The notes under the pieces are model-generated. The model made no database searches, was not told the DNA's origin, and saw only the letters and a program-made list of their open reading frames with translations. Shown here piece after piece: positions 4,817-64,000 of a stretch of 64,000 bases of DNA (position 1 is the first letter of the stretch; each line of letters opens with the position of its first letter). The position numbers and the translations under genes were made by a program. The stretch spans positions 11,344 to 75,343 of the forward strand of contig CAZSKP010000006.1 in the NCBI GenBank assembly GCA_964607485.1, in the 5' to 3' direction. Source of the stretch: an uncultured bacterium. Lineage in GTDB: Bacteria; Abyssobacteria; SURF-5.

Positions 4817-5812
4817 CTATCTCTCCCGTGCTACGATATAGTCGCAGAGGTCGATCATGGATTTCTTGTATTCCGATTCAGGAAATACGTCAAGCGCCTG
4901 TTTCGCGCGTGAGGTGAAATCGCGGGCGACTTCTGTGCAGTACTCATCGGCTGCGTAGGCGCGAATGCTCTCGCACAGCCACGATTTGTCGTTTTCGCCC
5001 AGACGGTGCTCGCGGAGGATTCCCTTTATCCTGTCGGCGTCGCTTCCGTCCATGCGGTTCAACAGACATATCGTCGGCAGGGTGGCCTTTCCGTCGCCGA
5101 TGTCGCAGAGTATCGGCTTGCCCAGTCGTTCCTCATCCGCGACGAAGTCGAGCAGGTCGTCCACGATCTGGAACGCCATGCCGAAATTGTGGCCGAAGAC
5201 GCGCATCGCCTCGGCGGTTTCGTGAGGCGCCCCCAGCGCCTGAACCGGCATCTTGCACACGGCTCCCATCAACGAGCTTGTCTTGTGCTGGATGACGGTG
5301 TAGTAGTCGTCCTCGCCTATTATTCCGTTGGCGCACGCGGTAACCTGATGCAGCTCGCCTTGCGACATATCCTTGACGGCGTTCATTATCGTGCGTATCA
5401 CGTCGGCGTTGCGATATTCGCTGAGGATATACAGCGCCTGGGATATGATGTAGTCTCCCAGGAGGACGGCCACCTTATTGTGCCAGCGGGCGTTGACGGA
5501 TTGAACCCCTCGGCGCACCTTCGCGCCGTCCACGACGTCGTCGTGGATAAGGCTGGCAAAGTGCGTCATCTCGCTCGCCACCGCGACGTCGATAAGCGCC
5601 GAGCTTCCGTTTGCCTCGACCGACAATCCTGCCAACAGCGCCAGCGCGGGGCGAATCTGCTTGCCCTCGACGACGGTCTTCTCGAACCCTATTCCCCTGA
5701 TGAGACCAAAAGCACCTCGGAGGTGCCTGGTCAAATTCTTCCTGACCGCTACCAGTTCCTCCGCTATCGGCTGGTAGATACTGGTGAGGCTCAAATCCTG
5801 TGAAAGCTGCAT
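4817..5812 (-). CDS. Polyprenyl diphosphate synthase (IspB/HepT-like)
   Basis: GKQIRP, ASLIHDDVVD, RRG, AVLLGD, KT, AFQIVDDLLD (two DDxxD motifs). Confidence 0.93.
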   Translation of the reverse strand: MQLSQDLSLTSIYQPIAEELVAVRKNLTRHLRGAFGLIRGIGFEKTVVEGKQIRPALALLAGLSVEANGSSALIDVAVASEMTHFASLIHDDVVDGAKVRRGVQSVNARWHNKVAVLLGDYIISQALYILSEYRNADVIRTIMNAVKDMSQGELHQVTACANGIIGEDDYYTVIQHKTSSLMGAVCKMPVQALGAPHETAEAMRVFGHNFGMAFQIVDDLLDFVADEERLGKPILCDIGDGKATLPTICLLNRMDGSDADRIKGILREHRLGENDKSWLCESIRAYAADEYCTEVARDFTSRAKQALDVFPESEYKKSMIDLCDYIVARER

Positions 5813-5964
5813 GAACTATCTCCGCTTCTGCTCGGCGTTCGAATCTCGAATCTTTCAAATGTCAGAGAGGCCTCCGACAGTCGCTCCTTCTTATTCACGG
5901 TCGGTTTTGCGCACAATCTTACCATATGCCGGCAAGGCACGTCAACGAAACACGGCGGACGCGG

Positions 5965-7353
5965 TCATCGGCTGATCATATGGATCGCCTGCTTGTGCAC
6001 GTCTTCATCCGCCTCATGTATGCTCTCTGAGAGCGTGGGGTGCGCGTGAATCATTTCGGCGATTTGGTCAACGGTCACTCCGGCGTGCACGGCGAGCACC
6101 ATTTCGTGGATGATGTCCGTCACGCCTGGGCCTATCATGCTTGCGCCGAGCACCTTTTCGGTCTTTTTGTCGGCCACCACTTTCACGAATCCCGTCGTGT
6201 CCTCGAGTATCATCGCCTTTCCAAGCGCCGTGAACCGAAACTTGCCGGTGGCGACATCGTGGCCCGCCTCGACGGCCTCGCTTTCCTTCATGCCCACAGT
6301 GGCTATCTCGGGCCGCGTGTACACGCAGTTGGGCACCGCCTGGTAAGAGAAGGTGCGCGAGCCGCCCAGCGCATTGGCCGCGGCCACGGTGCCCTGCGCG
6401 CTGGCGACGTGAGCGAGCATCACGGTCCCGAGAACGTCGCCCACGGCATACACGCCGGGCACGTTCGTCTCCATCTTCTCGTTGACCGTTATCCGGCCCT
6501 TCTCGCCGCACTCGACGCCCGCTTCTTCAAGCCCCACACCTTTTGACACGACCGAACGCCCGACGCAGACAAGCGCCTTCTCGGCCTCGATGGATTCGCC
6601 CGATTCGGTCTTCGCCGTCACCCTTCCGTCGGAGACATCCATCTCCGTGATTTTCGTGTTGGTCATCACCTTTATGCCGCGACTCTTGAATTGGCTCTTG
6701 AGCGTTTGCGCGATCTCTTTCTCCTCGGTGGGAACGAGCTGCGGAAGCAGTTCCACGAGCGTTACCTCGGACCCGAAATCGCGGAACATGCTCGCGAACT
6801 CACAGCCGACGTATGCGCCGCCGATGATGAGTATCGACTTGGGAATCTCCGTGAGCTCCAGAGCTTCGTCGCTGGTGATGCAGTTCACGCCGTCCACTTT
6901 GAACATGTCGGGCTTCATCACCGTCGAACCGGTTGCGATGATTATGTTTTCGGATTCCCCTTTGGCCTGGCCCTGGGGGAGCGTCACTCCGACTCGGCGC
7001 TCGCCGAGCAGCTTGCCCTCGCCGTGAACGTATTCGATCTTGTGCGCTTTCAGGAGGCTGTGCACCCCCTTGACAAGCCTCTGAACGATTGCGTTCTTGC
7101 GCTCGAAAGCTTTGACATAATTGAGCTTAGGTTCGCCGACGCTGACGCCGAACTTCTCCGCCTCCCTCGCCTTTGAGAGCAGGTCGGCGGTGGCAAGAAG
7201 CGCCTTTGTTGGGATGCAACCTCTCAGCAGGCAGGTTCCTCCGACCTCGTCCCGCTCTATCAGGGCCACGCGCGCGCCTAACTGGGCGGCCCTGATTGCG
7301 GCGACGTAACCTCCGGTGCCCGCTCCTATTATGCTCACATCAAACTTTTCCAT
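5965..7353 (-). CDS. lpdA: Dihydrolipoyl dehydrogenase
   Basis: IIGAGTGGYVAAIRAAQLG, redox disulfide GGTCLLRGCIP, C-terminal HAHPTLSE. Confidence 0.95.
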   Translation of the reverse strand: MEKFDVSIIGAGTGGYVAAIRAAQLGARVALIERDEVGGTCLLRGCIPTKALLATADLLSKAREAEKFGVSVGEPKLNYVKAFERKNAIVQRLVKGVHSLLKAHKIEYVHGEGKLLGERRVGVTLPQGQAKGESENIIIATGSTVMKPDMFKVDGVNCITSDEALELTEIPKSILIIGGAYVGCEFASMFRDFGSEVTLVELLPQLVPTEEKEIAQTLKSQFKSRGIKVMTNTKITEMDVSDGRVTAKTESGESIEAEKALVCVGRSVVSKGVGLEEAGVECGEKGRITVNEKMETNVPGVYAVGDVLGTVMLAHVASAQGTVAAANALGGSRTFSYQAVPNCVYTRPEIATVGMKESEAVEAGHDVATGKFRFTALGKAMILEDTTGFVKVVADKKTEKVLGASMIGPGVTDIIHEMVLAVHAGVTVDQIAEMIHAHPTLSESIHEADEDVHKQAIHMISR

Positions 7354-7506
7354 CGCCTTCGTTTCTCCGGGTCGTGCGGCTGGTACGTGGTTGCCTTGAG
7401 GACAGCAGTCAGGAAGAGTATAACATCAAAAACGGCGCTAATCTAGCACAAATCGCCTTCCAAAGTCAAGGCGCGGGGAACGAGGAATTTCGCCGCGTGG
7501 ATCGAA

Positions 7507-8853
7507 TCAATCGGCGCAGAATCGTTCCTGCGATTCCTCGAGGGTTTCCCTGAGCACGGCCGTGCACTGGTCGATCTGTTCCTCGGTAATGATGAAGGGC
7601 GGGGCAATCATGATATGGTCGCCCCGGCCCTGCTCGTCCTCGTAGTAGCCGGGATAGAAGAACACGCCCTTCATCATGCATTGCATGATGATGTCCATCT
7701 TGGCGTTCTTTTCCCTGGGAAGCGGCTCCTTTGTTTCCTTGTCTTTTACGAGCTCGACCGCCCACAGCATCCCCTTGCCGCGGATGTCGCCCACTATGGG
7801 AAGCGAATCGAGCTGGAGCAGGCTTTCGTGGAGGTAATTCCCCATCTGCCCGGCGCGCGCAATCAGGTTTTCTTTCTCGATGATCCGCTGCACCTCGTTG
7901 CCGACGGCGCATGAGAGCGGATGGGCCGAGAACGTGTACAGGTGCTGGAACTCCACTTCCTTCTCCTCGAAGAGTGAGACGAGTTCGTCTCTGACCGCCA
8001 TGCCCGCCAACGGCGCGTATCCGCTGCTTGCCCCCTTGGCGAATGTGGCGATGTCGGGCACCGTGTTGAAGTTGTCCATGCCCATGTTCCTGCCCGTTCG
8101 GCCGAATCCGGTTATTACCTCGTCGGCGATGAATATGACGTTGTATTTGTCGCACGTCTCCCGAATGATGGGGAAATATTCGGGCGGCGGGACGGCCGCC
8201 CCGGCGGCGGCGCCGACGACCGGCTCGGCAATGAACGCGGAGACCGTGTCGGGCCCTTCGGCACGGATTACCTCTTCGAGGTCCTGCGCGCAATCGATAT
8301 CGCAGCCGGGGTACTCCTTTCCGTAGGCGCACCGATAACAGTAGCACGGCTCGACGCGCGGATTGTCCCACAGCATCGGGATGAAATCGGCCCTGCGTTT
8401 CTTGATGTCGCTGAACGAGAGAGTCGCCAGTGTCATTCCGTGGTAGCTGAGGTTTCGGGTGATAACCTTGTATTTGGATTCCCTTCCGGCCACCACGTGG
8501 TACTGACGCGCGAACTTGATTGCCGCCTCGTTCGCCTCCGAGCCGCCGGAGCAGTAGTATATTCGGCTGAGCTCTTTGGGCATGATTTTCTTGATTCGCT
8601 TCGTGAGCTCTATCCTGGCTTCCGACGCGAATACCGGCAGGACGTATGACACCTGCTCCAATTGCCTTTTTGCCGCCTCGGCGACCTCCTTGCGGCCATG
8701 GCCGATGTTGACCGCCATCGGCCCGCCGGAGGCGTCGATTATCTGCCGGCCATAGGAGTCGTGCAGATACACGCCCTCGGTTTTCGTGATGAGGATGGGC
8801 GGCACGTGCGGCTCGCGGTAGAACATGTTCGCGATGACTTCCTGCATCTCCAT
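7507..8853 (-). CDS. Class III PLP aminotransferase
   Basis: SGGSEANE, SYHG, AFIAEPVVG, IADEVITGFGRTG, PDIATFAKG (PLP Lys). Confidence 0.93.
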   Translation of the reverse strand: MEMQEVIANMFYREPHVPPILITKTEGVYLHDSYGRQIIDASGGPMAVNIGHGRKEVAEAAKRQLEQVSYVLPVFASEARIELTKRIKKIMPKELSRIYYCSGGSEANEAAIKFARQYHVVAGRESKYKVITRNLSYHGMTLATLSFSDIKKRRADFIPMLWDNPRVEPCYCYRCAYGKEYPGCDIDCAQDLEEVIRAEGPDTVSAFIAEPVVGAAAGAAVPPPEYFPIIRETCDKYNVIFIADEVITGFGRTGRNMGMDNFNTVPDIATFAKGASSGYAPLAGMAVRDELVSLFEEKEVEFQHLYTFSAHPLSCAVGNEVQRIIEKENLIARAGQMGNYLHESLLQLDSLPIVGDIRGKGMLWAVELVKDKETKEPLPREKNAKMDIIMQCMMKGVFFYPGYYEDEQGRGDHIMIAPPFIITEEQIDQCTAVLRETLEESQERFCAD

Positions 8854-8926
8854 ATTCTTAACCTCCCTTGATTCGGAGACAGCGTTCGCATGTTTGTTTC
8901 AGAACCGGGTGCTTGCTATGAATGCA

Positions 8927-9958
8927 TTACGGGTACAACCTGGGAGTCTGGCTTATGCCGAGCATCTCCCGCGCCTGCGCCGGCGTGGCAACCTCGCGGT
9001 TCAACTCGTGGATCAGGCGCACGGCCCTCTCGACCAGTTGGGCGTTGCTCTCGGCCTTTTCCCCGCGGCGATAGTACACGTTGTCTTCCATGCCGACGCG
9101 TATATGGCCTCCCATTATCAGGCTCAGGGTGATGATGGGGAGTTCCAGCGAGCCTGTCCCGATGGCCGAGAAGAGGGACTTGGGAGGCATGTTGGCAATC
9201 ATATCCATCGCCGACATGACGGTTGGAGGACTGCAGGCGCCGTCCTGCCCGAAGACCAATTGGCACCAGTAGGGCGGCTCGAGCAGTTTTCGGGCGATGA
9301 GGTTGTCCACGAACCACCAGCTCTGACTGTTGAAGACCTCCAGTTCCGGCTTGATGTCGCTCGCCTTCATGGCGCGGGCGAACTTCTCGGTCTTCGTGTA
9401 GCCGAGCATGTCGACGCCCTCGTACTGGAGCGTCTTCTCATCTATGACGGTCAGCCCTCTTCCCTTCAAGAACTCGAGCGTGCTTTCGTCCGGGTCGGAG
9501 AGGGGAAAAGGGGATTTCACCCTCATGCGCATGTAGAGCATGCCCACGTCGAGGGATGCGACCTCGGGTTTGCAGTCGGCAAAGAACTTGTTGATGACCT
9601 CTTCGTCGTCTTCCTTGAACATGCCCGAGCACGTGTTGTTGATGATGAGGTCGGGACATCGTTCTCGGATAAGATGGTTTGCCCTGTAGAAGTCCTCCGC
9701 GTTGCTGGAGTTGGTCGCATAGTTCATGTTGGGATCGCGCGCGTGGATGTGCACCATGCTTGCGCCTGCCTTGTATGCCTCGTACGCCGAGTCCGCCTGT
9801 TCCTCGGGCGTTTCGGGCAGGTTCGGGTTCGCCGCCTTTCCGTGTACCCCGCCGGTTATGGCGCAGGTGACGATGACCGGCGGCCATTTCGTGAAATGCT
9901 CGCGCCACTCCCGATTGTCGGTGAATCTCCAACTCGTGTCCTCAAGGTCAAGAGACAT
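8927..9958 (-). CDS. Beta-keto acid cleavage enzyme (BKACE/DUF849, Kce family)
   Basis: VIVTCAITGG, NPNLPETPEE, AGASMVHIHAR (Zn HxH), PELEVF, GGHIRVGMEDN, REVATPAQAREMLG. Confidence 0.92.
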   Translation of the reverse strand: MSLDLEDTSWRFTDNREWREHFTKWPPVIVTCAITGGVHGKAANPNLPETPEEQADSAYEAYKAGASMVHIHARDPNMNYATNSSNAEDFYRANHLIRERCPDLIINNTCSGMFKEDDEEVINKFFADCKPEVASLDVGMLYMRMRVKSPFPLSDPDESTLEFLKGRGLTVIDEKTLQYEGVDMLGYTKTEKFARAMKASDIKPELEVFNSQSWWFVDNLIARKLLEPPYWCQLVFGQDGACSPPTVMSAMDMIANMPPKSLFSAIGTGSLELPIITLSLIMGGHIRVGMEDNVYYRRGEKAESNAQLVERAVRLIHELNREVATPAQAREMLGISQTPRLYP

Positions 9959-13164: not shown

Positions 13165-13437
13165 TCATTCGAAATTGTAGTGTTTCCTCACGGCTTTGGA
13201 GACCTTCCAGACGCAGTCCATGCCCTTGGGGAAGGTGACGAAGTCGCCCGGCCCGAATTCGACCGGCTTCCCGCCTCTCGGCTCGACGCGCACCTGGCCC
13301 TCGAGGACGTAGCACTTCTCGGTGTCGTCGTAGTGCCAATCGAACGTCGAGGGCTCCTTCTCCCACGTCGGCCATGAGAAGACGCCCATTTCCTTGAGTT
13401 CCTTTTCGCTCTTCTTCTCCTTCCTTATCTCGGCCAT
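13165..13437 (-). CDS. Cupin (DUF861-like) protein
   Basis: WPTWEKEPSTFDWHY, EKCYVLEG, GDFVTFPKG, VRKHY; AGGAG precedes the ATG at 13437. Confidence 0.88.
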   Translation of the reverse strand: MAEIRKEKKSEKELKEMGVFSWPTWEKEPSTFDWHYDDTEKCYVLEGQVRVEPRGGKPVEFGPGDFVTFPKGMDCVWKVSKAVRKHYNFE

Positions 13438-13483
13438 CGTATTTCTCCTTTCCAACATCTGTGCTGCGTTGTTTCTCTATTGT

Positions 13484-13534
13484 CTTCTTGAGATGCTTCG
13501 CTTCTTGAGATGCTTCGCTTCGCTCAGCATGACA
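13484..13534. repeat. REP-like half element with a 17-bp tandem duplication
   Basis: CTTCTTGAGATGCTTCG twice, then CTTCGCTCAGCATGACA; matches the right arm of the element at 17016-17091. Confidence 0.75.
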
Positions 13535-13615
13535 GGGGGGGTGCCTTAGTTCTTTCGTCGGGTTTCGGCTTCAGGGTTCCGGGTTAAAACCCTAAACTCG
13601 GGACCCTGAACCAGA

Positions 13616-14494
13616 TTATATTTCGATCCCCAGTATGCGCTGAGCGTTTTTGAGAAATATTTTTTCGAGGATGTCGTCCTTGTAGCCCTCGGAGGCGTAT
13701 GCGTCGAAGAGCTTCTGGTGCGGGATCATGGGATAGTCCGACCCGAACATCGCGCGGTCCTGAAGGCGGCCGTGCAGCTCCTTCTTCAGCGCGGGCGAGA
13801 AATATTTCGGAGACCAGCCCGAAAGCTCCATGACGACGTTTGACTTGTGTATGAGCACGGCGATCATCTCGTCCTGCCACGGCCACGAGGGGTGACACGC
13901 GATGATGAGAAGGTCGGGAAAATCGGCGGCGACGTCGTCGATATATGGAATGGGCTTTGTGTACTTGAGATGAATTCCCAAGCCGCCGGGCATGCCGGCG
14001 CCGAGGCCGGTCGTGCCCGTGTGGAACATCACGGGCGCCTTCAGCTCGGCGCATTTCTCCCAGAGCGGATAGAAGCGGCGGTCGTTAGGGTAGAATCCCT
14101 GCGCGGTCTGCTGAAACTTGACGCCCATCAGTCGGAGCTCTTTGATCGCGCGTTCGGCTTCCTTGATGGCCATCTCGCCCTTCCACGGGTCAACCGAGGC
14201 ATAGCCGCCGACGAACGCGTCGGGGAAGTCGCTCGTGAGTTTGGCGATGTAATCGTTGCTCGTGGCCGGCTCGCCGGTGTTGCTCTCGGCGTCCCACGCG
14301 ACGATTATCCCCTTGACGCCCGCGTCGATGAAGTCCTGGGCCATGTCCTGTTCGCTCTTCGAGACCGACAGCACTTCCTCATCCGAAAGCTCTTGCTTCT
14401 GATAATACTGCAGGAGAGCTCTCTGATACTTCAGCAGGCTCCTGGCGGCGGCTCGTGTCGATGGGTGCGCATGCACATCAATCGCCTTAATCAT
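13616..14494 (-). CDS. Amidohydrolase-2 family, CouO/PhdC-like beta-ketoacyl-CoA hydrolase
   Basis: IDVHAH, FHTGTTGLGAGMPGG, IDDVAADFP, HPSWPWQDE, ELSGWSPKYF, FGSDYP; start moved to the ATG at 14494 after AGGAGG. Confidence 0.85.
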   Translation of the reverse strand: MIKAIDVHAHPSTRAAARSLLKYQRALLQYYQKQELSDEEVLSVSKSEQDMAQDFIDAGVKGIIVAWDAESNTGEPATSNDYIAKLTSDFPDAFVGGYASVDPWKGEMAIKEAERAIKELRLMGVKFQQTAQGFYPNDRRFYPLWEKCAELKAPVMFHTGTTGLGAGMPGGLGIHLKYTKPIPYIDDVAADFPDLLIIACHPSWPWQDEMIAVLIHKSNVVMELSGWSPKYFSPALKKELHGRLQDRAMFGSDYPMIPHQKLFDAYASEGYKDDILEKIFLKNAQRILGIEI

Positions 14495-14546
14495 CTCGGC
14501 CTCCTGTGGGAAGTTCGTTGGTATTTTTCGAGTGCCTATCGGAATC

Positions 14547-15308
14547 CTACGCGGTGTTTCCTCCGTCAACAACGATGATCGACCCGGTGGTGAAGCTCGA
14601 GGCATCCGATGCAAGATACAGCGCGGCCCCGGCGATTTCGTCCGGCTGGGCATGTCGGGTCAAGGGGATATCCTTGATCGCGAGCTCATATATTTCCTTT
14701 GTTTCGATGAGCACGCTGGCAAAATGCGTCTGCGTCAGCCCGGGGCATATGGCGTTGTATCTGACGCCGAACGGGCCCAGCTCCTTTGCATATGCTTTGG
14801 TCATCATGACCACGGCGGCCTTCGTCATGCCGTACACAGCCTGCATGGGCGAGGCACGCAGTCCGGCGACGGATGCGATGTTGATTATCGACCCGCTCTT
14901 TCGCTCGGCCATGAGCTTGCCCGCTTTTTGGGCCATGAAGAAGTAGCCCTTGGTGTTGACCTCGAAGGTCTTGTCGTATGCGGATTCAGGGACCTCGAGC
15001 ACACTGCCGAAGTACGGGTTCGTGGCCGCGTTGTTGACGAGTATATCCACCTTCCCGTAGGCGTCCATCACCCGCTCGAACAGGGCATCGACCATTTCCA
15101 TCTTGCCCGTGTGGCAGGCGACGGCGATGGCTTCTCCTCCCGACTTCTTTATCGACGCCGCGACAGAGTCGAGCGATTTTTGCTTTCGGGACGATAGGAC
15201 CACTTTCGCGCCGTTTTCGGCGAACGTTCTGGCGATGGCCTCACCGATTCCGCGACTGGCCCCGGTCACGACGGCCACCCTGTCTTTGAGACTGAAACTT
15301 GCCCCCAT
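14547..15308 (-). CDS. Short-chain dehydrogenase/reductase
   Basis: TGASRGIG, NNAA, YGMTK (YxxxK), VDGG. Confidence 0.93.
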   Translation of the reverse strand: MGASFSLKDRVAVVTGASRGIGEAIARTFAENGAKVVLSSRKQKSLDSVAASIKKSGGEAIAVACHTGKMEMVDALFERVMDAYGKVDILVNNAATNPYFGSVLEVPESAYDKTFEVNTKGYFFMAQKAGKLMAERKSGSIINIASVAGLRASPMQAVYGMTKAAVVMMTKAYAKELGPFGVRYNAICPGLTQTHFASVLIETKEIYELAIKDIPLTRHAQPDEIAGAALYLASDASSFTTGSIIVVDGGNTA

Positions 15309-15386
15309 TCCTTAACTTCCTCCTCATCAGCGAAACATATTAACCTCGAAGGGACCGAAAGAATCAGAACTTCACACGTGAGCGGC

Positions 15387-15851
15387 CTACTTTGTGAAGA
15401 ACATCGTGAGCGCTTCCGCGACGCAGGCCGGCTTGTCTTTGCCCTCTATCTCGATGGTATGCGTCGTGGTCACGAGGACTCTGCCGCCCGCCTTCTCCTC
15501 CACGTTGGAGAGGACGATCCTGTCCCTGATTTTCGAGTTCACCTCGACCGGCGTGACGAACCTGAGCTTGTTCAGCCCGTAGTTAATCGCCATCATTGTC
15601 CCCTCCGGCACGAGCGAAATGTCGGACGCAAAGAAAGGAATAAGGGAAACGGTGAGATAGCCGTGCGCGATGGTCTTGCCGAAGGGACCGCCGGCTGCTG
15701 CCTCTTCATCCACGTGTATCCACTGATGATCCTCCGTGCAATCGGCGAAATCGTTGATCCGCTTCTGGTCGACCTGAATCCAGTCGCTGACGCCGATTTC
15801 CTTTCCGACGCGCTCCTTGATTTTTTCCACTGCCAACACTTCCATAGCCAT
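15387..15851 (-). CDS. MaoC-family (R)-enoyl-CoA hydratase
   Basis: FADCTEDHQWIHVD, TIAHGYLT, NYGLNKLRF. Confidence 0.92.
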   Translation of the reverse strand: MAMEVLAVEKIKERVGKEIGVSDWIQVDQKRINDFADCTEDHQWIHVDEEAAAGGPFGKTIAHGYLTVSLIPFFASDISLVPEGTMMAINYGLNKLRFVTPVEVNSKIRDRIVLSNVEEKAGGRVLVTTTHTIEIEGKDKPACVAEALTMFFTK

Positions 15852-15890
15852 TGTTTTCCTCCTTTTACTGAGATGTCTCTTGGCAAGAAT

Positions 15891-16688
15891 TCAAACCTTC
15901 ATGCCCGGCAAATTGAGTGAGGCGGTGTTGCCGCCATCGACAGGAAGGGCTTGTCCGGTGACATAGCTGGCCTCGTCGCTTGCCAGAAAGAGGATGGCCG
16001 CCGCAACTTCCTCCGGCTTCCCATATCGCCTGAGCTCGCAGCGATAGCCGAGCTTGTGCTCCTTTCCCGTATTTCGCGCGTAATCAAAGATCGGCTTCGT
16101 CATCGCCGTTTCGATCAGCCCCGGACAGACGGCGTTGACCCGCACGCCGTATCCACCGAGGTCGCAGGCGGTCGTCTGCGTGAAGTTGATGAGAGCCGCC
16201 TTGCTGGCGCTGTAGGCGTTTCCGCCCGCTCCGGCCCGGATGCCCGCGACGGAGGCCGTGTTCACGATTGAGCCCTGCCTCCTCTCCCGCATGTGCTTCG
16301 CCACGTGCTTCGTGGCAAACATTGCCCCCATAAGATTGACGTCAAATGTCTTTCGCCAATCCTCGGCGTCCTCGTCCTCGATGCTGGGATATCCGCTGAT
16401 TATTCCGGCGTTGTTGCACAGAATGTCCACCTGCGAGTACCGCTCGAGGGCAAACGAGATAAGGCCCTTTACTTCTTCTTCTATCGCCACGTTCGTCTTT
16501 CGCACCGACGCCACGCCGCCCTGTTTGGCTATGAGGTTGGCGACTTCGGTCAGCCCTTCTTCATTCATATCGGCCAGGACGAGCTCTGCACCCTCCCGGG
16601 CGAACAAGAGGGCCGTCGCCCTGCCGATGCCGCTGGCCGCTCCGGTTATAACCGCAACTTTACCCGCCAAACGTCCTTGAGCTGCCAT
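15891..16688 (-). CDS. Short-chain dehydrogenase/reductase
   Basis: TGAASGIG, NNAG, YSASK, VDGG; ATG at 16688 follows AAGGAG. Confidence 0.93.
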   Translation of the reverse strand: MAAQGRLAGKVAVITGAASGIGRATALLFAREGAELVLADMNEEGLTEVANLIAKQGGVASVRKTNVAIEEEVKGLISFALERYSQVDILCNNAGIISGYPSIEDEDAEDWRKTFDVNLMGAMFATKHVAKHMRERRQGSIVNTASVAGIRAGAGGNAYSASKAALINFTQTTACDLGGYGVRVNAVCPGLIETAMTKPIFDYARNTGKEHKLGYRCELRRYGKPEEVAAAILFLASDEASYVTGQALPVDGGNTASLNLPGMKV

Positions 16689-17015
16689 GATCCTCTCCTT
16701 TTGAGTGGGGCGTTCAGCCCGTCCGGTATCGGTCATCCTGGCCCTTTTCCGTTTCCGACGGTGTATCTACACCAAGAGATGGTTGACCCTCGAATTGTTC
16801 CGTTTGACTTAAGGTTGCCGATTTGCCGGGAGAGAGTCGTTGAAGTTGCCTTTGCGGGGGTGAGTATATATTATTGGCCTTGGAATTTCAATGCTATTCA
16901 GCTAGAGGAGTTTCCCCAAGAATCTGTTCATGAAAGTTGTAATGTCTTTGACCGCCGGTCCGTACGAAATTCTGAATATGGCGGTCTTTTGCTAACTCTG
17001 ATCGCAATTGCAGGC

Positions 17016-42896: not shown

Positions 42897-44903
42897 ATGA
42901 TGAATGATATGAGGGGGAGAAGCTCCTTCCTGAAAAAGCGCGGGGTGCAATTGGCGGCCATCTGTTGGCTGTTGTTGGCACTCGTTATCGTCTTGAACCG
43001 GGAAGACATTTGGGACTTTGTCCGCCCTTACTCTCCATTTGGCAGAATAGAATATACGCCTCCACCCGCGTTGGGGGACGCGGGCCCCGGCGCCGGGTAC
43101 CTTCGTCACCCTATCCGGGGAATTAAGTACGCACATCAGACGATGTTGGCGAAGCGACAGAGTGACAATGGCCCGATAAGGTTCACTATTGACGCCGAGA
43201 AAGGGGACGGTTTGGAGGTCGGGTTGGTCCGTCTCAGCGGACCGCGCCATAATTCCGGTGAATACGTTTTCAACGTTTACGAACTGCTGAAAGGAAAAAG
43301 GAAGAAGCTGCTCGAGACGTCGGGAGAATTTCCGGTGGATAAGTGGACGTTTTTTCGAATCAACAATGGTTTGGCAGGGCGAAACGACGGCACCACTGAA
43401 ATCCAATACACGATCAGACGCAAAGGATGGAAAGGGAAAATCGCGTCAATTTTTTCGAGGGGAAAAGAGGGCGACGGCCTCTATCAGAATTTCGCGTTCC
43501 TGAAGCCCAATCTATTAAACAAGAGGAAGCAGGGAGAGTTAAACGTCATCCTGATTTCATTCGATACACTCCGCGCCGATCACCTGGGTTGTTACGGATA
43601 TCCTCGCGACACGAGTCCCAACATCGATGACTTCGCCCGCAAGAGCGTTATGTTTTCGCAGGCGATAAGTCCGCAGCCGCAAACGATTCCCGCCCATCGC
43701 AGTTTGTTTACCGGGCTCTATCCAATGGCCCACGGGTACCAGGAGAAGGTGGGAGGGTGGGACGAGTTTATCGGAATATTCCGGCCCCTATACCCCCATG
43801 CGACGCTCGCCAGTGTCCTGAGGGACAACGGATATTACACGGCTGCGTTCACTGGCGGCGGAACCATATCCTCGGAGTTCGGGTTTGCAAGAGGCTTCAA
43901 CGTTTACGAGGAGTTTTGTAGCTTCGAACGGATCGATGATCCCAAGTTAATGGGAATAAGTCGCGACAACGATACGAAAAAAATATTCGACAACGCCATT
44001 CAATGGCTGAAGGAGAATTCCGACCTGAAGTTCTTCATGTTTGTCCACACATTCGAGTGTCACTCTCCCTATGAAGGTACTTACTTTCTTTCCGACGACT
44101 CAGCGAGCAGCCTTATCGAACAGAGAAAGGCGCTCTATGACGGGGACATCAGAATCGCGGATTCGCACTTCGGCAGACTCATGCAGGCAGTTGATTCGCT
44201 TAACCTCCTGTCGGACACGGTGATCTTGTTTGTGAGCGATCACGGCGACGACCTTTACGATCACTATCGGGAGAGCGACTGGATTCCGCCCATTCCCAAA
44301 GATCTTATCATTCCCCAAGTAAACCGAATCGACCACGGTCATTCGCTATATGATGAACTCATTCATGTTCCTCTAATCGTCTATATTCCCGGGATAGAGC
44401 CTCCGAAGCGCATCATCGGCAATCAGGTGCAGCTAACAGATGTGATGCCAACAATCCTTCAACTTCTCGGCATTGAATATGAAGGCCCTGTCAACGGAAC
44501 GAGCATATTGGAACTCATGATGACGGGCAGAAGAAATGAAGATCCTCCGGCTTTAGGCGAGTGCGGCATCACCGGAGAAAACCGAAAATCGATTCGAAAG
44601 GACGGATACAAATACATCTGGACCAAGGACCCGGCACGCGTGCCGCCGAGCGGCGTAACTCTGAGAAATCTCCACGAACACGAGCTCTTCAACTTGAAGA
44701 GCGACCCCAAGGAAAAGATCAATATCTATGATGAAAACAAGGAACTGGGCGCGGAATATGACAAAATTCTCAAGGAGCAGCTCGAGGCGACGGCGGCCCT
44801 CAAAAACAGGTTGCAGACAATGAATAAGCAGACCGACGAGGAATCAACCCGCTTGTCGGAGGACGTATATGACAGCGTTAAGGCTCTGGGATACCTGCAA
44901 TGA
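42897..44903 (+). CDS. Membrane-anchored sulfatase-like (alkaline phosphatase superfamily) protein
   Basis: NVILISFDTLRADHLG, QTIPAHRSLFTG, FVHTFECHSPY, VSDHG, HGHSLYDE, LFNLKSDP.E, KALGYL. Confidence 0.85.
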   Translation: MMNDMRGRSSFLKKRGVQLAAICWLLLALVIVLNREDIWDFVRPYSPFGRIEYTPPPALGDAGPGAGYLRHPIRGIKYAHQTMLAKRQSDNGPIRFTIDAEKGDGLEVGLVRLSGPRHNSGEYVFNVYELLKGKRKKLLETSGEFPVDKWTFFRINNGLAGRNDGTTEIQYTIRRKGWKGKIASIFSRGKEGDGLYQNFAFLKPNLLNKRKQGELNVILISFDTLRADHLGCYGYPRDTSPNIDDFARKSVMFSQAISPQPQTIPAHRSLFTGLYPMAHGYQEKVGGWDEFIGIFRPLYPHATLASVLRDNGYYTAAFTGGGTISSEFGFARGFNVYEEFCSFERIDDPKLMGISRDNDTKKIFDNAIQWLKENSDLKFFMFVHTFECHSPYEGTYFLSDDSASSLIEQRKALYDGDIRIADSHFGRLMQAVDSLNLLSDTVILFVSDHGDDLYDHYRESDWIPPIPKDLIIPQVNRIDHGHSLYDELIHVPLIVYIPGIEPPKRIIGNQVQLTDVMPTILQLLGIEYEGPVNGTSILELMMTGRRNEDPPALGECGITGENRKSIRKDGYKYIWTKDPARVPPSGVTLRNLHEHELFNLKSDPKEKINIYDENKELGAEYDKILKEQLEATAALKNRLQTMNKQTDEESTRLSEDVYDSVKALGYLQ

Positions 44904-58645: not shown

Positions 58646-60196
58646 TTGATTGAGGATATCAATGTAAAAAGACTGCTCGCTGAATCGGACAATCTTCCCA
58701 CAATGCCGGCAGTAGCCAGCCAGCTCTTGGTAATCACAGAGTGGGAGAATGTGGACTTGGGCAAGGTGGCGGAGACGATAAGCAAGGATGTCTCGCTCAC
58801 CTCCAAGATCCTGCGCGTAGTCAACTCGCCCTTCTACGGGCTGGGGCAGGAAATAAGCACCATATCGCAGGCGCTGGTAGTGCTCGGGGCACGGGCCACG
58901 CGGTCGCTTACTCTCAGCTTTTCCATATTGACGATGTGCAAGGGCGACGGGACGTCTCGGTTTGATTATCCCGGCTTCTGGACACGGTCGCTCAACACGG
59001 CGGCCGTTGCGCGCGAACTTGCGTTCGCTGTGGGGCTTCGGACAGAGGAAGAGGCCTTCCTCGCAGGGCTGTTACAGAACATGGGCGTCATGGTGGTCGC
59101 CCGATGTGTTCCACAATTGTATGCTCGCGTCGTCGGGGAAGCCGGAGACAAACTCGCGCCTTCGCTTGAGGCGGAGAGAGAGCACCTGGGCATCGACCAC
59201 GTCGAGGTGGCCAAATTGCTTTTCGAGAAATGGAATCTGCCGGCCTCGCTGTGCATACCGATCTTCTACCACCACACCCCGGAGAAAGCGAATAACGCCG
59301 AGGGCCAGACGCTTACCTCGATTCGCATCCAATATTTTGCGGGACGCGTCGGAGAGTGGCTGTATAGCCACGACGGCGACGACGCATTGCTGCAAGAACT
59401 TAAGAAAGAAGCGTCACAGTATTTCGATATTTCTCCAAACGAATTCGAAGCGCTCATGTACCGGGTTGACACCAAGATGGAGGAGATGTCTGAGCTTTTT
59501 GAATTGAGCAAATCAAGGCCCAATACCTATGCGAATCTTCTGGAACAGGCGAATCTTAAGCTCGGCGATATCGTCAGCAAACAGGAACGCCTTCTCAGGG
59601 AGCTCGAAGCGGCCAAGGTCGAGGCGCAGACGCTCGCCGAACAGCTCCGCATAGCGAACAATAAGCTGCTTGAGGAAGCGCGGAGAGACCCGCTCACCGA
59701 CCTGCCCAACCGGCGACTGTTTGAAGAGTTCCTCCGGAAAGAACTGGAGCGTTCGATACGATACCATCATCCTATTGCGTTGTTGTTCATCGATATCGAC
59801 GACTTCAAGTCGTTGAACGACCGGTACGGGCACCTGGAGGGAGATTCGGCGCTGAGGCAGGTGGCACACGTTCTGGGGAAAGGAGTTCGCGTGAGCGACA
59901 TCGTGGCCCGCTACGGCGGGGAAGAGTTTATCGTGGCGCTTGTGGAAACCAGGAGCACCGAAGCGATGGCGGTCGCCGAACGGCTCAGGCGCTCCATCGA
60001 GGAGACGCCGATTCATTCCAGTGAAGGTGACACGCCCATACGCCTGACCGCGAGCATAGGCGCAACGACGTGGGAACCCCCCAGCCAGCCCGTGAGCATA
60101 GACGAGCTCATAGAAGAGGCCGACCGCGCCATGTATCGGGCCAAGAAAGCGGGAAAAAATTGCGTTGTAACTGAAAATGAGCAGGTCCCGCAGTAG
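58646..60196 (+). CDS. HDOD-GGDEF diguanylate cyclase
   Basis: TTG after AAGGAG; LPTMP, ILRVVNSPFYG, HHTP; DPLTDLPNRR, DIDDFK, RVSD (RxxD I-site) then RYGGEEF. Confidence 0.92.
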   Translation: MIEDINVKRLLAESDNLPTMPAVASQLLVITEWENVDLGKVAETISKDVSLTSKILRVVNSPFYGLGQEISTISQALVVLGARATRSLTLSFSILTMCKGDGTSRFDYPGFWTRSLNTAAVARELAFAVGLRTEEEAFLAGLLQNMGVMVVARCVPQLYARVVGEAGDKLAPSLEAEREHLGIDHVEVAKLLFEKWNLPASLCIPIFYHHTPEKANNAEGQTLTSIRIQYFAGRVGEWLYSHDGDDALLQELKKEASQYFDISPNEFEALMYRVDTKMEEMSELFELSKSRPNTYANLLEQANLKLGDIVSKQERLLRELEAAKVEAQTLAEQLRIANNKLLEEARRDPLTDLPNRRLFEEFLRKELERSIRYHHPIALLFIDIDDFKSLNDRYGHLEGDSALRQVAHVLGKGVRVSDIVARYGGEEFIVALVETRSTEAMAVAERLRRSIEETPIHSSEGDTPIRLTASIGATTWEPPSQPVSIDELIEEADRAMYRAKKAGKNCVVTENEQVPQ

Positions 60197-60347
60197 CGGC
60201 CCAGAGCAGCCGCAGTCCATCCCAACCCCGGGATCCACCGGCAAAAGCGAGAATCCCATCCCTCATACCCGCCTCGCCCCTCTTTTTCCGCAATGAAGGA
60301 AAACCAAGAAAAGAACGGCCTATTGCCCAAAAAAACAAGTACCTATT

Positions 60348-60453
60348 TGTCATTCTGATCGAAGCGAAGAATCTCTGTTTTGAGATGAACATTTCCAGAA
60401 AAGCGAGAGATTCTTCGTCGCCCGGGTCTGCGACCCTTCGCTCCTCAGAATGA
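60348..60453. repeat. REP-like bipartite palindrome
   Basis: TGTCATTCTGATCGAAGCGAAGAATCTC ... GAGATTCTTCG...CTCAGAATGA, with an insertion in the right arm. Confidence 0.75.
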
Positions 60454-60532
60454 GAGTTCTGATAGACTTAGGAAACAAGAACCTGTTTGCGCAACACGCC
60501 GAAAAAAGGAGATTTTTCCGTCGATTTAGGGC

Positions 60533-60592
60533 TTGACAGCCGGCCGGTTTGGTGGTATAATGACACTGCGACGATATTATGACATAGTGTCA
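60533..60592 (+). promoter_or_regulatory. Consensus sigma70 promoter plus TetR-type operators
   Basis: TTGACA (60533)-17 nt-TATAAT (60556) with TG extension; TGACA-TAG-TGTCA palindrome (60580-60592) and a degenerate copy TGACACTGCGACG (60561). Confidence 0.85.
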
Positions 60593-60605
60593 GAGGAGGC
60601 TCTGC

Positions 60606-61229
60606 ATGGCCAGACGGCATAGGATTGAACAAGAGAGGCAGGCGAGGATGGACCTCATCCTCGATAGCGCCGAGAAACTCTTCATAGAAAAGGGTTACAA
60701 CGATACTTCCATGAACGACATCGGCGAACGTGCCGATTTCAGCCGTACGTCGGTCTATCAATATTTCAGCAGCAAGGAGGAAATATACCTCTGCATCCTC
60801 GAGCAGTACAACGAATTGCTCACCGACCGTGTCGCCGAGGCCACCGCCAACGCGCTCACCACGCCTGATAAGATCAGGGCCTTTCTCGAAGAGATACGGA
60901 AGATGATAAAGGAGAAGCCGAATTTCTTCGGGCTGTATTTCATCCAGAGGCACCAGGTGGAACCGCGATTGTCTGAGGAACTCAGGGCACGGCTCAATAC
61001 AGAGCGGAGAAGGCTTGAGAACGTTTTCCGCGATTTCTATCGGGAGGGAGTCGAGAGGGGCGAGGTCCGCAACATAGGCGTCAAGGATGCCTCGAACCTC
61101 TTTTTTGCGCAGATCATGGGCATGATGTTGCTGCACGAGTACTACGGGAAAGAGTTCGATGTGACGCTCGACGAACACCTTGATAAGTCGCTTCAACTGT
61201 ATCTTGAGTTCGTCGAGAAGGTGGATTAA
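60606..61229 (+). CDS. TetR/AcrR-family regulator
   Basis: ILDSAEKLF..KGY..TSM.DI..ADFSRTSVYQYF.SKEEI. Confidence 0.93.
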   Translation: MARRHRIEQERQARMDLILDSAEKLFIEKGYNDTSMNDIGERADFSRTSVYQYFSSKEEIYLCILEQYNELLTDRVAEATANALTTPDKIRAFLEEIRKMIKEKPNFFGLYFIQRHQVEPRLSEELRARLNTERRRLENVFRDFYREGVERGEVRNIGVKDASNLFFAQIMGMMLLHEYYGKEFDVTLDEHLDKSLQLYLEFVEKVD

Positions 61230-61254
61230 CCGGGCAGAGGGGGAGGTAATTGTC

Positions 61255-63723
61255 ATGGAACAGGCTGTTGCAGAGATACTATCGCCGCAAGAGGAGAGAA
61301 TAGAGCGAGGGGAGCCCATCGGGCTTGTCGGCGAGGACGCCCAGAGGAAACGAGCCAGAATCCACAAGATGCTGGAAGGTTTCAGGGACAAGCCGATAAG
61401 AATGAACCTGGAGAGGGCGCGCCTTCTTACGCAGTCATTCAAAGAAACCGAGGGCCAGCCGGTGGTGTTGAGGTGGGGCAAGGCCATGGCCCACATATTG
61501 CGCAACTTCCCCATTCATATCGACGAGGATGAATTGATCGTGGGCAGCGCCGGACCTCCCGGACGCTATGCCGTCTTCTTCCCGGAACTGGAGGAAAAGT
61601 TCTTCTCGCAGGAAGTCCGTCCGAGCGAACCGGACGAGCCGCTAGCGCTGACGGAGGAAGACGTACGAATTATCAACGAGGAGCTCAGACCTTATTGGGA
61701 AGGCAAGCAGTATCACACGGCGTACGTGAACGCCCTGCCCGAGGATACCCGCCGCCTGCTGGAACTGTATTGCATCGTCACCCCCACCGCGACGGCCCGC
61801 ACAAGCCTGGCATGGAACCACGACTATGAGAAGGTGCTCAAGCGAGGCCTCAGGGGATTCAAACAGGAGGCCGAGGAGAAGCTGGCCTCGCTCGACCCGC
61901 TGAATCCGAAGGACAAGCTGGAGAAAGAACCCTTCCTGAAGGCCGTGATACTTGTCTGCGACGCTATTGTCGAGTTCGCCAAGAGATACGCCGAGCTCGC
62001 GAGAAGCATGGCCAAAGATGAAGCGGACGAGGAAAGAAAGCGGGAGCTTCTGAACATCGCCGAGGTCTGCGAATGGGTTCCCGAAAATCCGGCCAGGACG
62101 TTTCACGAGGCCGTTCAGTCGCAATGGTTGATTCAGACCGTGTCCCGGCTCGAACAGCGCATCGGCGGAACGGTCGGCAACGGAAGGATCGACCAGTACT
62201 TCTATCCTTATTATAAGAAAGATATCGAGGAAGGTCGGATTACGAAGGACAAAGCGCTCGAGCTTATAGAATGCCTGTGGATCGGCATGGCAAAGAACGT
62301 CGAGATATACACGGCGCCGGGCAGCCTGTCCTTCACCGATGGGTACGCCCATTGGGAAGCGACCACGATAGGCGGCGTGACAAAAGAAGGAGAGGACGCG
62401 ACCAACGAGCTGTCCTACCTGATGCTCGAATCGAAGCGCGAATTCCCCCTCAACTATCCCGACCTCGCCGCGCGGATACACGCGCAGACACCCGAACCGT
62501 TCCTCCACGCAATCGCCGAGACGATAAAGGAAGGTACCGGCTTCCCCAAGCTTTTCTTCGACGAAGAGATCATTCCTCTTTTTCTCGCCAAAGGCGGGCA
62601 GGTGGAGGAGGCGAACGACTATTGCATATGCGGCTGCACCGAGGCGAAGATGCTGAACCGTGACGCGGTCTCGACCGGATGCGCCTGGACCAACCTGGGC
62701 GCCGTCGTCGAGATGACGCTCAATGACGGCAAGCTGAAACTGTTCGGCGAGCAGCAGATAGGCGTCAGCACCGGCGACGCGAGAAAGTTCGCCTCGTACG
62801 ACGACCTTTGGAACGCCTTCTGCCGCCAGGGCGAGAACGTCATGAAGCATACGTTCGTCCAGCAGTACGTCGCCGATACGCTCAAGTCGCGCTTCATCGC
62901 GGCGCCGATGTCGTCGATGCTCCACGACCTCTGCATGAAAGAGTGCAAGGACATGCATTCGGGTCCAATCGACGGGGCTCTCTACCTCGGGTTCATCGAC
63001 ACGCTCGGCTTTGCCACCGCGATAGATTCGCTGGCCGCCATAAAGAAACTCGTGTTCGACGACAAGAAGCTGACGATGGCCGAGCTGCTGGACGCGGTGG
63101 ACGCCAACTTCGACGGGAAAGAGGCCATAAGGCAGATGTGCCTGAACGCCCCCAAGTACGGCAACAACGACCCATACGCCGATTCGATAGGCCGCGACAT
63201 CGAGGAGTTCTTCGTCAAGCTGACCCGCAGGTACAAGTCGGCGTTCGGCGGGGAACTGGACATACGATACGTCACCATCACGGCGCATGTGCCGTTCGGA
63301 GCCGTGCTGGGCGCGACGCCCGACGGAAGGAAGGCGGGCGAGCCCATAGCCGAGGGTGTCAGCCCCTCTCAAGGCGCCGACAGGAAGGGGCCGACCGCGA
63401 GCCTCGCCTCCATCGCGAAGACCAAGGCGGCGGGCTACAAGGAGCGCGCGGCAAGGCTGCTGAACATGAAGCTGTCGCCGTCGGCGGTGGCGGGTAAAGA
63501 TGGCAGCAAGAAACTAATGTCGCTCATGAGGACCGCGTGCGACCTGAAAATGTGGCACCTGCAGTTCAACATCATCAACAGGGACACGCTCATCGCCGCG
63601 CAGAAAGACCCCGAAAAATATCGGGACCTGCTCGTCCGTGTCGCCGGCTACAGCGCGTACTTCGTGGACCTGACGCCGCAGCTTCAGGACGAGATAATAA
63701 AGAGAACGGAACACAGCTTTTAG
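61255..63723 (+). CDS. Glycyl radical enzyme, IslA/HpsG (sulfonate C-S lyase) clade, variant active site
   Basis: RVAGYSAYF (radical Gly), CGCTE (Cys loop), GYAHWEATTIGG, SKREFPLNYPDLAARIH, ERAARL, CDLKMWHLQFN; ATG after GGAGG. Confidence 0.9.
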   Translation: MEQAVAEILSPQEERIERGEPIGLVGEDAQRKRARIHKMLEGFRDKPIRMNLERARLLTQSFKETEGQPVVLRWGKAMAHILRNFPIHIDEDELIVGSAGPPGRYAVFFPELEEKFFSQEVRPSEPDEPLALTEEDVRIINEELRPYWEGKQYHTAYVNALPEDTRRLLELYCIVTPTATARTSLAWNHDYEKVLKRGLRGFKQEAEEKLASLDPLNPKDKLEKEPFLKAVILVCDAIVEFAKRYAELARSMAKDEADEERKRELLNIAEVCEWVPENPARTFHEAVQSQWLIQTVSRLEQRIGGTVGNGRIDQYFYPYYKKDIEEGRITKDKALELIECLWIGMAKNVEIYTAPGSLSFTDGYAHWEATTIGGVTKEGEDATNELSYLMLESKREFPLNYPDLAARIHAQTPEPFLHAIAETIKEGTGFPKLFFDEEIIPLFLAKGGQVEEANDYCICGCTEAKMLNRDAVSTGCAWTNLGAVVEMTLNDGKLKLFGEQQIGVSTGDARKFASYDDLWNAFCRQGENVMKHTFVQQYVADTLKSRFIAAPMSSMLHDLCMKECKDMHSGPIDGALYLGFIDTLGFATAIDSLAAIKKLVFDDKKLTMAELLDAVDANFDGKEAIRQMCLNAPKYGNNDPYADSIGRDIEEFFVKLTRRYKSAFGGELDIRYVTITAHVPFGAVLGATPDGRKAGEPIAEGVSPSQGADRKGPTASLASIAKTKAAGYKERAARLLNMKLSPSAVAGKDGSKKLMSLMRTACDLKMWHLQFNIINRDTLIAAQKDPEKYRDLLVRVAGYSAYFVDLTPQLQDEIIKRTEHSF

Positions 63724-63746
63724 GTATTACTCGGAGCAGTTATTAG

Positions 63747-63830
63747 TGTCATTCTGAGCGTAGCGAAGAATGTCAGAGATTACGTCAGGTGCGGAGAAAG
63801 ACGAGATCCTTCACTTCGTTCAGGATGACG
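63747..63830. repeat. REP-like bipartite palindrome
   Basis: TGTCATTCTGAGCGTAGCGAAGAAT ... GAGATCCTTCACTTCGTTCAGGATGACG; right arm identical to the one at 49510-49537. Confidence 0.85.
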
Positions 63831-63882
63831 AAAGTGGGCAGGGCTGCCAATAGTAAGGCAGTTCACTGAGGGCATTGAGGAG

Positions 63883-63908
63883 GTGGGGGCGCACGGCGGT
63901 GCGCCCTC
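63883..63908. repeat. Short REP-like hairpin of a different family
   Basis: GTGG-GGGCGCAC-GGCG-GTGCGCCC-TC. Confidence 0.5.
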
Positions 63909-64000
63909 GCCGCAATCCGCATGAAACACAGAGCCGAAAACTCCAGCCGTCGAGATGGCGAGCTTGGACTCGTCTTCAACATACAGAAATTTTCCCTCCA

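Follow-up and report, generated by a model that had tools for sequence, protein, structure and literature searches.

What does an oxygen-sensitive glycyl radical enzyme (GRE) act on if it keeps the catalytic machinery and both sulfonate-binding arginines of the isethionate sulfite-lyase IslA, but has no glutamine at the third position of the sulfonate grip? This question is raised by the last 3.5 kb (60533-64000, all on the + strand) of a 64,000-nt stretch of contig CAZSKP010000006.1 from an uncultured bacterium of the Abyssobacteria (the whole stretch is referred to below as the window), where a tetR gene, a GRE gene and the beginning of an activase gene follow one another. From its sequence, this unit appears to be best read as a repressor-controlled, substrate-induced GRE 1,2-eliminase, a member of a so far uncharacterised family that is sister to IslA and HpsG, with a two-arginine anion grip and a retuned pocket. 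To our knowledge, the characterised enzymes of the IslA/HpsG branch number only three (IslA, IseG and HpsG), all of them from gut or sulfite-respiring bacteria and all with an Arg/Gln/Arg sulfonate grip. The features of the unit are as follows:

60533..60561, + strand: sigma-70-type promoter, with 12/12 consensus matches and hexamers kept in most orthologous loci of the alignment
60561..60573, + strand: putative operator site 1, the imperfect half-palindrome TGACACTGCGACG, with site 2 following 19 nt downstream
60580..60592, + strand: putative operator site 2, the perfect palindrome TGACA-N3-TGTCA, between the -10 hexamer and the tetR start codon
60606..61229, + strand: tetR, TetR-family repressor gene, 207 aa (P0002), from Pfam and orthologue conservation
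61255..63723, + strand: GRE gene, 822 aa (P0001), from Pfam, PDB matches and alignments
Codons within the GRE gene: Arg182 61798, Ala186 61810, Gly305 62167, Trp367 62353, Cys461 62635, Glu463 62641, Lys465 62647, Phe580-Thr583 62992-63003, Arg671 63265, Thr674-Ile675 63274-63279, Gly798 63646
63748..63829, no strand assigned: REP-like inverted repeat pair in the GRE-activase spacer, of a family dispersed through the window and not specific to the operon
63921..64000, + strand: 5' end (26 codons) of the gene for a GRE-activating radical SAM enzyme, with the start ATG at 63921 and the rest beyond the window end

Catalytic machinery and substrate pocket

Residues were compared through an alignment by HMMER to the solved structures of IseG (5ymr), IslA (7kq3) and HpsG (6lon) and were surveyed in 124 distinct sequences with at least 66% identity to the GRE, and the pocket was also compared with that of 17 Gln-bearing relatives. 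For the catalytic machinery, the protein matches the PFL-like (PF02901, 1.9e-189) and Gly_radical (PF01228, 5.8e-31) families of Pfam, and its radical motif RVAGYSAYF, which contains Gly798, fits the RVxG[FY] pattern of glycyl radical enzymes. The Cys-loop GCTEAKM (Cys461, Glu463), invariant in 124/124 relatives, fits the G-C-x-E motif of the 1,2-eliminases, whose Glu is the general base in GREs of the CutC, GD, PD, HypD and IslA type. The codons assigned to the Cys, Glu and Gly of an intact GRE, and to its two arginines, in a previous reading of this DNA from its letters alone (the sequence-only reading) all agree with these positions. Among solved structures, the GRE scores highest against IseG (993 bits), IslA (957 bits) and HpsG (923 bits), with 600 bits or less for CutC, and is far nearer to the former three than to BSS or PFL. 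The start codon ATG at 61255 is backed by homologue lengths of 821-826 aa, with which an alternative TTG start at 61180 disagrees and was rejected.

From residue 176 onward, the IslA number equals the query number plus 7, and the IslA numbering used in the sequence-only reading is correct. Gly798, Cys461, Glu463, Arg182, Arg671, Trp367 (W374 in IslA) and Val673 (V680) are kept, including both arginines and the tryptophan that had been proposed to be retained. The first-Arg segment, however, reads ARTSLAW as opposed to FRSSIQW or YRSALQW, with Ala186 in place of IslA Gln193; the second-Arg segment reads RYVTITAH as opposed to RYVPFTSH or RYVPITSH, with Thr674-Ile675 in place of Pro681-Phe682; and GFIDT stands where GYFEF or SYFEF is found in the solved enzymes, exchanging Tyr587-Phe-Glu-Phe for Phe-Ile-Asp-Thr. 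In addition, Thr312 of IslA is replaced by Gly305, the Cys-loop Arg472 by Lys465, E589 by Asp582 and P681 by Thr/Ser, all of which were missing from the earlier and otherwise correct list of pocket changes. The loop before Arg182 (before strand beta-1) is 7 residues shorter, with 22 residues versus 29, as had also been noted from the sequence. The sulfonate triad Arg189/Gln193/Arg678 of IslA is incomplete, both arginines being kept and the glutamine being exchanged, and the HpsG triad Arg183/Gln187/Arg672 and its SYFEF are not matched either, Ala standing for Gln and GFIDT for SYFEF. Judging from side-chain sizes, the pocket may be roomier than that of IslA and could accommodate a larger hydroxyalkyl sulfonate.

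These differences are not confined to the window. All of the 124 relatives carry Arg182, Ala186, Gly305, Trp367, Cys461, Glu463, Lys465, Asp582, Arg671 and the 22-residue loop, while the position of IslA Y587 is occupied by Phe in 115 and Tyr in 9, and that of F682 by Ile in 104 and Val in 20. The substitutions Q193->A, F682->I and Y587->F, which had been singled out earlier, are all present, but only the first is diagnostic, as Ile is the HpsG state at the second position and Phe is not fixed at the third. Gln is invariant in the 17 Gln-bearing relatives and Ala in every member of the query family. The switch of signature is also sharp: sequences at 64% identity or less that have both arginines all possess Gln or Asn together with the Cys-loop Arg. 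Of the 822 positions, 12 are clade-defining (with a residue that is fixed to 97% or more in the family and that none of the 17 Gln-bearing relatives has), and three of these are the equivalents of Gln193, Thr312 and Arg472, so that the divergence is concentrated at the active site. The pocket changes are a family signature rather than a property of a single odd gene.

Mutational data are available for the corresponding residues of IslA. Table 2 of Dawson et al. (PMC8473560) lists no detectable activity for the variants Q193A, R189E, R678E and V680A and an activity about 50-fold down for F682A, and the same paper argues that Gln193 and Thr312 sterically block a migration-type reaction in IslA. 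The Arg/Gln/Arg triad is described as common to IslA, IseG and HpsG in section 5.6.3 of PMC13450708, and the part of Xing et al. (PMC6453916) that deals with the similarity network gives the triad residues as conserved across the IseG cluster. By keeping the machinery but not the triad Gln, the query family fails a defining feature of these three enzymes, and a natural and invariant version of the Q193A substitution that kills IslA is carried by its more than 120 environmental sequence clusters at 66% identity or more. Literature searches found nothing on the query clade; glycyl radical enzymes are mentioned 0 times in the Candidatus Abyssubacteria genome paper, and CANT-HYD mentions Abyssubacteria only for AhyA.

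Phylogenetic position of the family

A word-indexed protein search with the GRE returned 120 clusters at 66-87% identity, none of which has a functional name, and a genome scan yielded 71 loci (L-numbers), 23 of them in the query group. Family members originate from metagenome-assembled genomes (MAGs) labelled as many phyla, and from groundwater, subsurface, sediment and sponge-associated environments. A set of 181 sequences was aligned with MAFFT. Genome loci identified by their similarity to PDB entries served as reference points in the trees, because a search of 50%-identity representatives gave no separate representatives for IslA, HpsG or the query clade. Locus L035 (Bilophila wadsworthia) is HpsG, with 1881 bits to 6LON, and L015 carries the IslA signature and is nearest to IseG at 1377 bits. 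The query clade is monophyletic with 100% support both in a FastTree tree (25 of 60 rows) and in a quick IQ-TREE tree (12 of 32 rows), and in both of them the IslA-signature rows (L014, L015, L025) join the HpsG rows in a different part of the tree. Against IseG and IslA, HpsG reaches 1210 and 1180 bits, respectively, above the scores of the query GRE against the same two structures, and thus enzymes with differing substrates are closer to each other than to the query GRE. On these trees and scores, the query GRE is placed in a separate clade, and the group comprising the IslA-signature as well as the HpsG-signature sequences does not include it.

The alignment and the trees, in which Q193 is not conserved and the GRE does not fall among characterised IslA/HpsG orthologues, do not refute the sequence-only reading. 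Its descriptive core stands, with pocket differences that have turned out to be invariant, and its assignment to the IslA/HpsG clade holds insofar as the GRE is nearer to IseG, IslA and HpsG than to CutC, BSS or PFL; however, the placement within the IslA group and the diagnostic value of two of the substitutions do not.

When compared to IslA (Bilophila wadsworthia, PDB 7KQ3) and IseG (Desulfovibrio vulgaris, PDB 5YMR), the GRE shares homology over its full length, the Gly/Cys/Glu machinery, the two sulfonate-binding arginines, a Trp that is unusual among eliminases and an activase gene next door, but differs by the Ala, Gly, Lys, Phe-Ile-Asp-Thr and Thr-Ile changes, by the 7-residue deletion and by its separate clade. 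Its unit has a TetR, and the annotated query loci have no transporter, sulfoacetaldehyde reductase or microcompartment genes. The 2,3-dihydroxypropane-1-sulfonate (DHPS) sulfolyase HpsG (Bilophila wadsworthia, PDB 6LON, locus L035) is similar to the query GRE in its Ile at the IslA F682 position, its GCTE Cys loop and the small residue at the IslA T312 position (Ala in HpsG, Gly in the query GRE), but it keeps Gln187, the Cys-loop Arg and SYFEF. [quoted passage not shown]

Among the loci, L011-L013 and L049 (Desulfocucumis palustris, Desulfotruncus arcticus and two MAGs) encode the full-length proteins that come closest to the clade from outside, at 60-64% identity. They are uncharacterised and share with the query GRE the Asp at the IslA E589 position, but they keep Arg/Gln/Arg and have the segments GFYDL and RYVPVT; like all IslA-like and HpsG-like sequences, they possess the Gln, the Cys-loop Arg and the long loop without deletion. 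Their gene layout is GntR/UTRA - short-chain dehydrogenase/reductase (SDR) - GRE - activase, with the SDR present in all four and an MFS transporter gene between regulator and SDR only in L012 and L013 (the GRE is at positions 6070, 7630, 10001 and 10001 of L011, L012, L013 and L049, respectively). Among the 50%-identity representatives P0123-P0142, there are many more groups with other pocket make-ups: P0123 has neither arginine, in P0124, P0136 and P0139 the second Arg is replaced by Phe, and P0125, P0128 and P0129 have Gln-Asn instead of Ile-Gln. The IslA-like branch contains many unassigned specificities, and the query clade is a good target for enzymology, though one of many uncharacterised GRE groups.

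Regulator, gene neighbourhoods and candidate reactions

For the regulator, the tetR product matches TetR_N (PF00440; 61.9 bits, 5e-17) and TetR_C_24 (29.5 bits, 1e-6), and an orthologue with 64-77% identity is located directly upstream of the GRE gene in 17 of the 19 query-clade loci with upstream DNA (the exceptions being L006 and L037) and in 0 of the 48 other loci. The promoter consists of TTGACA, a 17-nt spacer and TATAAT with TG before the -10, matching the sigma-70 consensus at every hexamer position. The palindrome TGACATAGTGTCA at 60580-60592 is the sole match to TGACANNNTGTCA in the window, with 0.03 expected. Thirteen query-clade loci have the exact palindrome, once per locus and in every case shortly before tetR; one-mismatch versions were found in L004, L009 and L061, and the TGACA...GTCA alignment columns are invariant in 15/15 aligned sequences. 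A further site, TGACAnnnTGAC[GA], lies 19 nt before the perfect palindrome in 10 of 19 query-clade loci (L002, L004, L005, L007, L017-L022). The proposals that the GRE has its own TetR gene and that the two lie behind a consensus promoter with an operator are well supported by this conservation, and the TetR with its putative operator is, as far as gene order and alignments indicate, a conserved and clade-specific partner of the GRE. Among the papers searched, no TetR was reported with a GRE of the query clade. The autoregulated, acyl-CoA-responsive TetRs FadR, FasR and MbdR have the same N-terminal helix-turn-helix, a palindromic operator over their own promoter and the same position at the head of the operon; these acyl-CoA/fatty-acid sensors are also the nearest full-length solved relatives, but with low similarity (E = 1e-9 to 1e-15). 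The conserved TetR/operator pair could be used as a ready-made biosensor route to the GRE substrate.

In the proposed mechanism, tetR, the GRE gene and the activase gene would form a self-contained repressor-controlled unit. Repression from a site over the -10 and the transcription start, with relief by an effector, is the textbook mode of TetR action. From the promoter anatomy, a TetR dimer on the two operator sites that cover these elements would shut off its own promoter, until it is released by an effector that is presumably the substrate or a closely related metabolite. By homology, the activase would then install the radical on Gly798, from which it would move to Cys461, and the Cys461 thiyl radical would act on a small hydroxy compound, gripped through its anionic group by Arg182 and Arg671, and remove hydrogen from its carbinol carbon. 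Glu463 would accept the hydroxyl proton while a group departs from the neighbouring carbon, leaving an aldehyde or a ketone. C-S cleavage of a hydroxy-sulfonate with release of sulfite would be the likeliest reaction, given the sister relationship to IslA and HpsG and the retention of both arginines, and the substrate is probably neither isethionate nor (S)-2,3-dihydroxypropane-1-sulfonate ((S)-DHPS), since the Gln->Ala, Thr312->Gly and Arg->Lys changes and the loss of seven loop residues are found in every member. We are fairly confident, on the pocket comparison, that the specificity differs from those of the three characterised enzymes and that the substrate is another compound than these two. 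That the reaction is the C-S cleavage of another hydroxy-sulfonate is a tentative proposal, to which we would give a little less than even weight, and the favoured reading as a whole, a repressor-controlled eliminase cleaving the C-S bond of a hydroxy-sulfonate other than isethionate or (S)-DHPS, is held with confidence that comes close to even but stays below it.

Several points weigh against this reading. No conserved sulfite-handling gene (Dsr, TauE, sulfite oxidase) or sulfonate transporter was found beside the unit, and many of the carrier MAGs are labelled as lineages that are not known as sulfite respirers, both of which weaken a sulfite-lyase function. The resemblance of the TetR to sensors of acyl-CoA and fatty acids would not suggest a small sulfonate as effector, and the additional room in the pocket is an estimate from side-chain sizes. 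Lys465 or water may stand in for the Gln, in which case the substrate would still be isethionate or DHPS. The FastTree and IQ-TREE trees disagree on the deep branching order, which should be treated as unreliable. Finally, the NCBIfam HpsG equivalog NF048011 accepts the query GRE, with 1207.4 bits versus a cutoff of 1000.

It is also conceivable, although somewhat unlikely, that the Arg pair holds a different anion (a phosphonate, a carboxylate, a sulfate ester or a phosphate ester), or that a sulfonate serves as a handle for the removal of water or ammonia from the adjacent carbon, with the product aldehyde being passed to CoA-linked or thiamine-dependent enzymes. HpfG acts on DHPS in such a manner, with the sulfonate as a handle. 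The likeness of the TetR to acyl-CoA sensors and the lack of conserved sulfite-handling genes nearby would agree with this explanation, as would the fact that Gln193 and Thr312, described as blocking migration in the IslA paper, are Ala and Gly here. Some gene neighbourhoods point the same way, even though, beyond tetR, the operator and the activase, no gene is conserved beside the GRE across the annotated loci of the family. In L004, whose GRE is 86% identical, genes for 2-aminoethylphosphonate transaminase (PhnW; 481 bits, cutoff 296) and phosphonatase (PhnX; 305 bits, cutoff 220) lie downstream of the activase at a distance of about 1.25 kb, and there is a gene for an aldehyde:ferredoxin oxidoreductase upstream (spans 4581-6545 and 14737-16716). 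An unassigned thiamine-diphosphate enzyme is encoded divergently from the tetR-GRE promoter in L017 (7452-9239, - strand), L018 (7484-9178, - strand) and L022 (3-1700, - strand), and belongs to the group of its best NCBIfam matches, none of which reaches the cutoff (acetolactate synthase PRK05858, 2-hydroxyacyl-CoA lyase and oxalyl-CoA decarboxylase); as its ATG is divergent and some 27 nt away from the tetR promoter's -35, it probably shares the tetR control region. In L017, Xsc (839 bits, cutoff 620) comes next, with a sulfatase beyond it. A FadH/old yellow enzyme-type flavoenzyme of 690-720 aa is encoded just upstream of the unit in L006, L007, L020 and L021, which are delta-proteobacterial or Spirochaetales-labelled MAGs with nifS-nifU downstream on the other strand (stretches at about 7100-9950 and 13400-15700); in L006, tetR is lost and the flavoenzyme gene abuts the GRE gene. 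However, none of these neighbours is clade-wide: each occurs in 1-4 loci, of which several come from related MAGs. The leads diverge between sulfonate, phosphonate and CoA esters, and a gap lies between the L004 phnW-phnX pair and the activase, so that the pair may have nothing to do with the unit. The members of the wider clade characterised so far are all C-S lyases, and according to PMC8473560, 2-hydroxyethylphosphonate was not turned over by IslA. Neither the sequence nor the gene neighbourhoods name the substrate.

An explanation that we consider improbable is that the GRE does the same job as a known enzyme, releasing sulfite from isethionate or DHPS while Lys465, water or the shortened loop makes up for the missing Gln, with the TetR as another regulatory solution. 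Both arginines, Trp367, Val673, Cys461, Glu463 and Gly798 are kept, HpsG likewise has Ile at the F682 position, IseG is the nearest of the solved structures, and NF048011 is passed. Nevertheless, activity is given as abolished in the IslA variant Q193A (Dawson et al., Table 2), Gln is invariant in the 17 Gln-bearing relatives and Ala in 124/124 members here, and the query clade lies outside the group of IslA and HpsG. Transport genes differ as well: a TRAP or SsuA/NMT1-type ABC transporter adjoins the GRE-activase pair in 6/6 control IslA/HpsG-type loci with flanks (L014, L015, L025, L027, L029 and L033, with DctP/Q/M-type TRAP in L027, L029 and L033), whereas neither a TRAP/SsuA-type transporter nor DctP/Q/M was found in the 16 annotated query-clade loci. 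The NF048011 score does not discriminate either. This model, named after HpsG and described as a dehydratase, scores the IslA-signature protein of L015 (1585 bits) above the true HpsG of L035 (1514 bits), gives 1095-1440 bits to other uncharacterised groups, and passes at least four differently equipped groups above cutoff, so that passing it marks a broad clade and not HpsG function. Automated annotation will therefore name proteins of the query family '(2S)-3-sulfopropanediol dehydratase', and since the model does not separate IslA from HpsG, inferences on sulfonate cycling from metagenomes are at risk.

A reaction that is new to the enzyme class, on a non-sulfonate anion, such as a C-P elimination of the 2-hydroxyethylphosphonate type or a 1,2-shift of a phosphono group, would be suggested by the replacement of the migration-blocking Gln193 and Thr312 of IslA with the smallest residues Ala and Gly in 124/124 relatives and by phnW-phnX downstream in L004, but we regard it as very unlikely. 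The idea of a paralogue that is decaying or catalytically inactive and plays no enzymatic part, for which the absence of an IslA-essential residue could be cited, can practically be dismissed given the intact 822-codon frame, the catalytic residues invariant in 124/124 relatives, the 66-87% identity across MAGs labelled as many phyla, the conserved dedicated activase and repressor, and the evidence of purifying selection. Finding the substrate would provide a new step of organosulfur (or organophosphorus) degradation in anoxic environments or a new type of GRE reaction, and would also reveal how the pocket is retuned.

Layout of the unit and surrounding sequence

The gap between tetR and the GRE gene is 25 nt and includes the ribosome-binding site GGGGGAGG before the GRE ATG; from this gap and the conserved gene order, the two genes are probably co-transcribed. 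The activase gene is directly 3' of the GRE gene in 21/21 query-clade loci that reach past the GRE. Its N-terminal translation in the window is MKHRAENSSRRDGELGLVFNIQKFSL; the stretch GLVFNIQKFSL agrees with the N-terminal end of orthologous activases, and the same GLVFNIQKFSLHDG N-terminus is found in the L004 activase; the activases of L002 and L007 match TIGR02494 at 349 and 338 bits (cutoff 174).

The upstream genes of the window (secretin, AAA ATPase, TPR protein, HDOD-GGDEF protein) are unrelated to the unit. A sulfatase-family protein of 668 aa (42897-44903, + strand) is encoded 16 kb upstream, adjoining a cation-efflux gene and an ABC-2 transporter set, and has no evident link to the GRE unit. 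A scan of 60000-64000 against Rfam at E up to 0.1 gave 0 matches, and in a plasmid search the GRE protein was matched at 39% identity at best, none of the 56 matching records containing a close relative. Two long antisense open reading frames overlap the GRE gene and tetR, one of 576 aa (61642-63372, - strand) and one of 348 aa (60468-61514, - strand); the former was rejected as a gene as it sits inside the GRE gene, and such frames, similar ones of which are seen in several GC-rich loci, are composition artefacts.

The REP-like repeat GTCATTCTGAGCG[AT]AGCGAAGAAT has 10 copies in the window at three mismatches or fewer, with 0 expected. The copies are at 13510, 17017/17067, 39419/39473, 49454/49513, 60349 and 63748/63806, most of them intergenic and arranged as inverted pairs with 50-60 nt between partners. 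The tetR promoter has one copy upstream of it, and a pair is found between the GRE and activase genes; their interpretation as the ends of a mobile element carrying tetR and the GRE gene was rejected, as the repeat is present at three other places in the window. The GRE-activase spacer (63724-63920) is 197 nt long and has a predicted fold of -81.8 kcal/mol (z = -5.6). It holds the REP hairpin and a 13-bp GC hairpin that ends 12 nt before the activase ATG, which has no adjacent Shine-Dalgarno sequence and no alternative in-frame start after a stop at 63876. The structured spacer may be a way of setting the ratio of activase to GRE.

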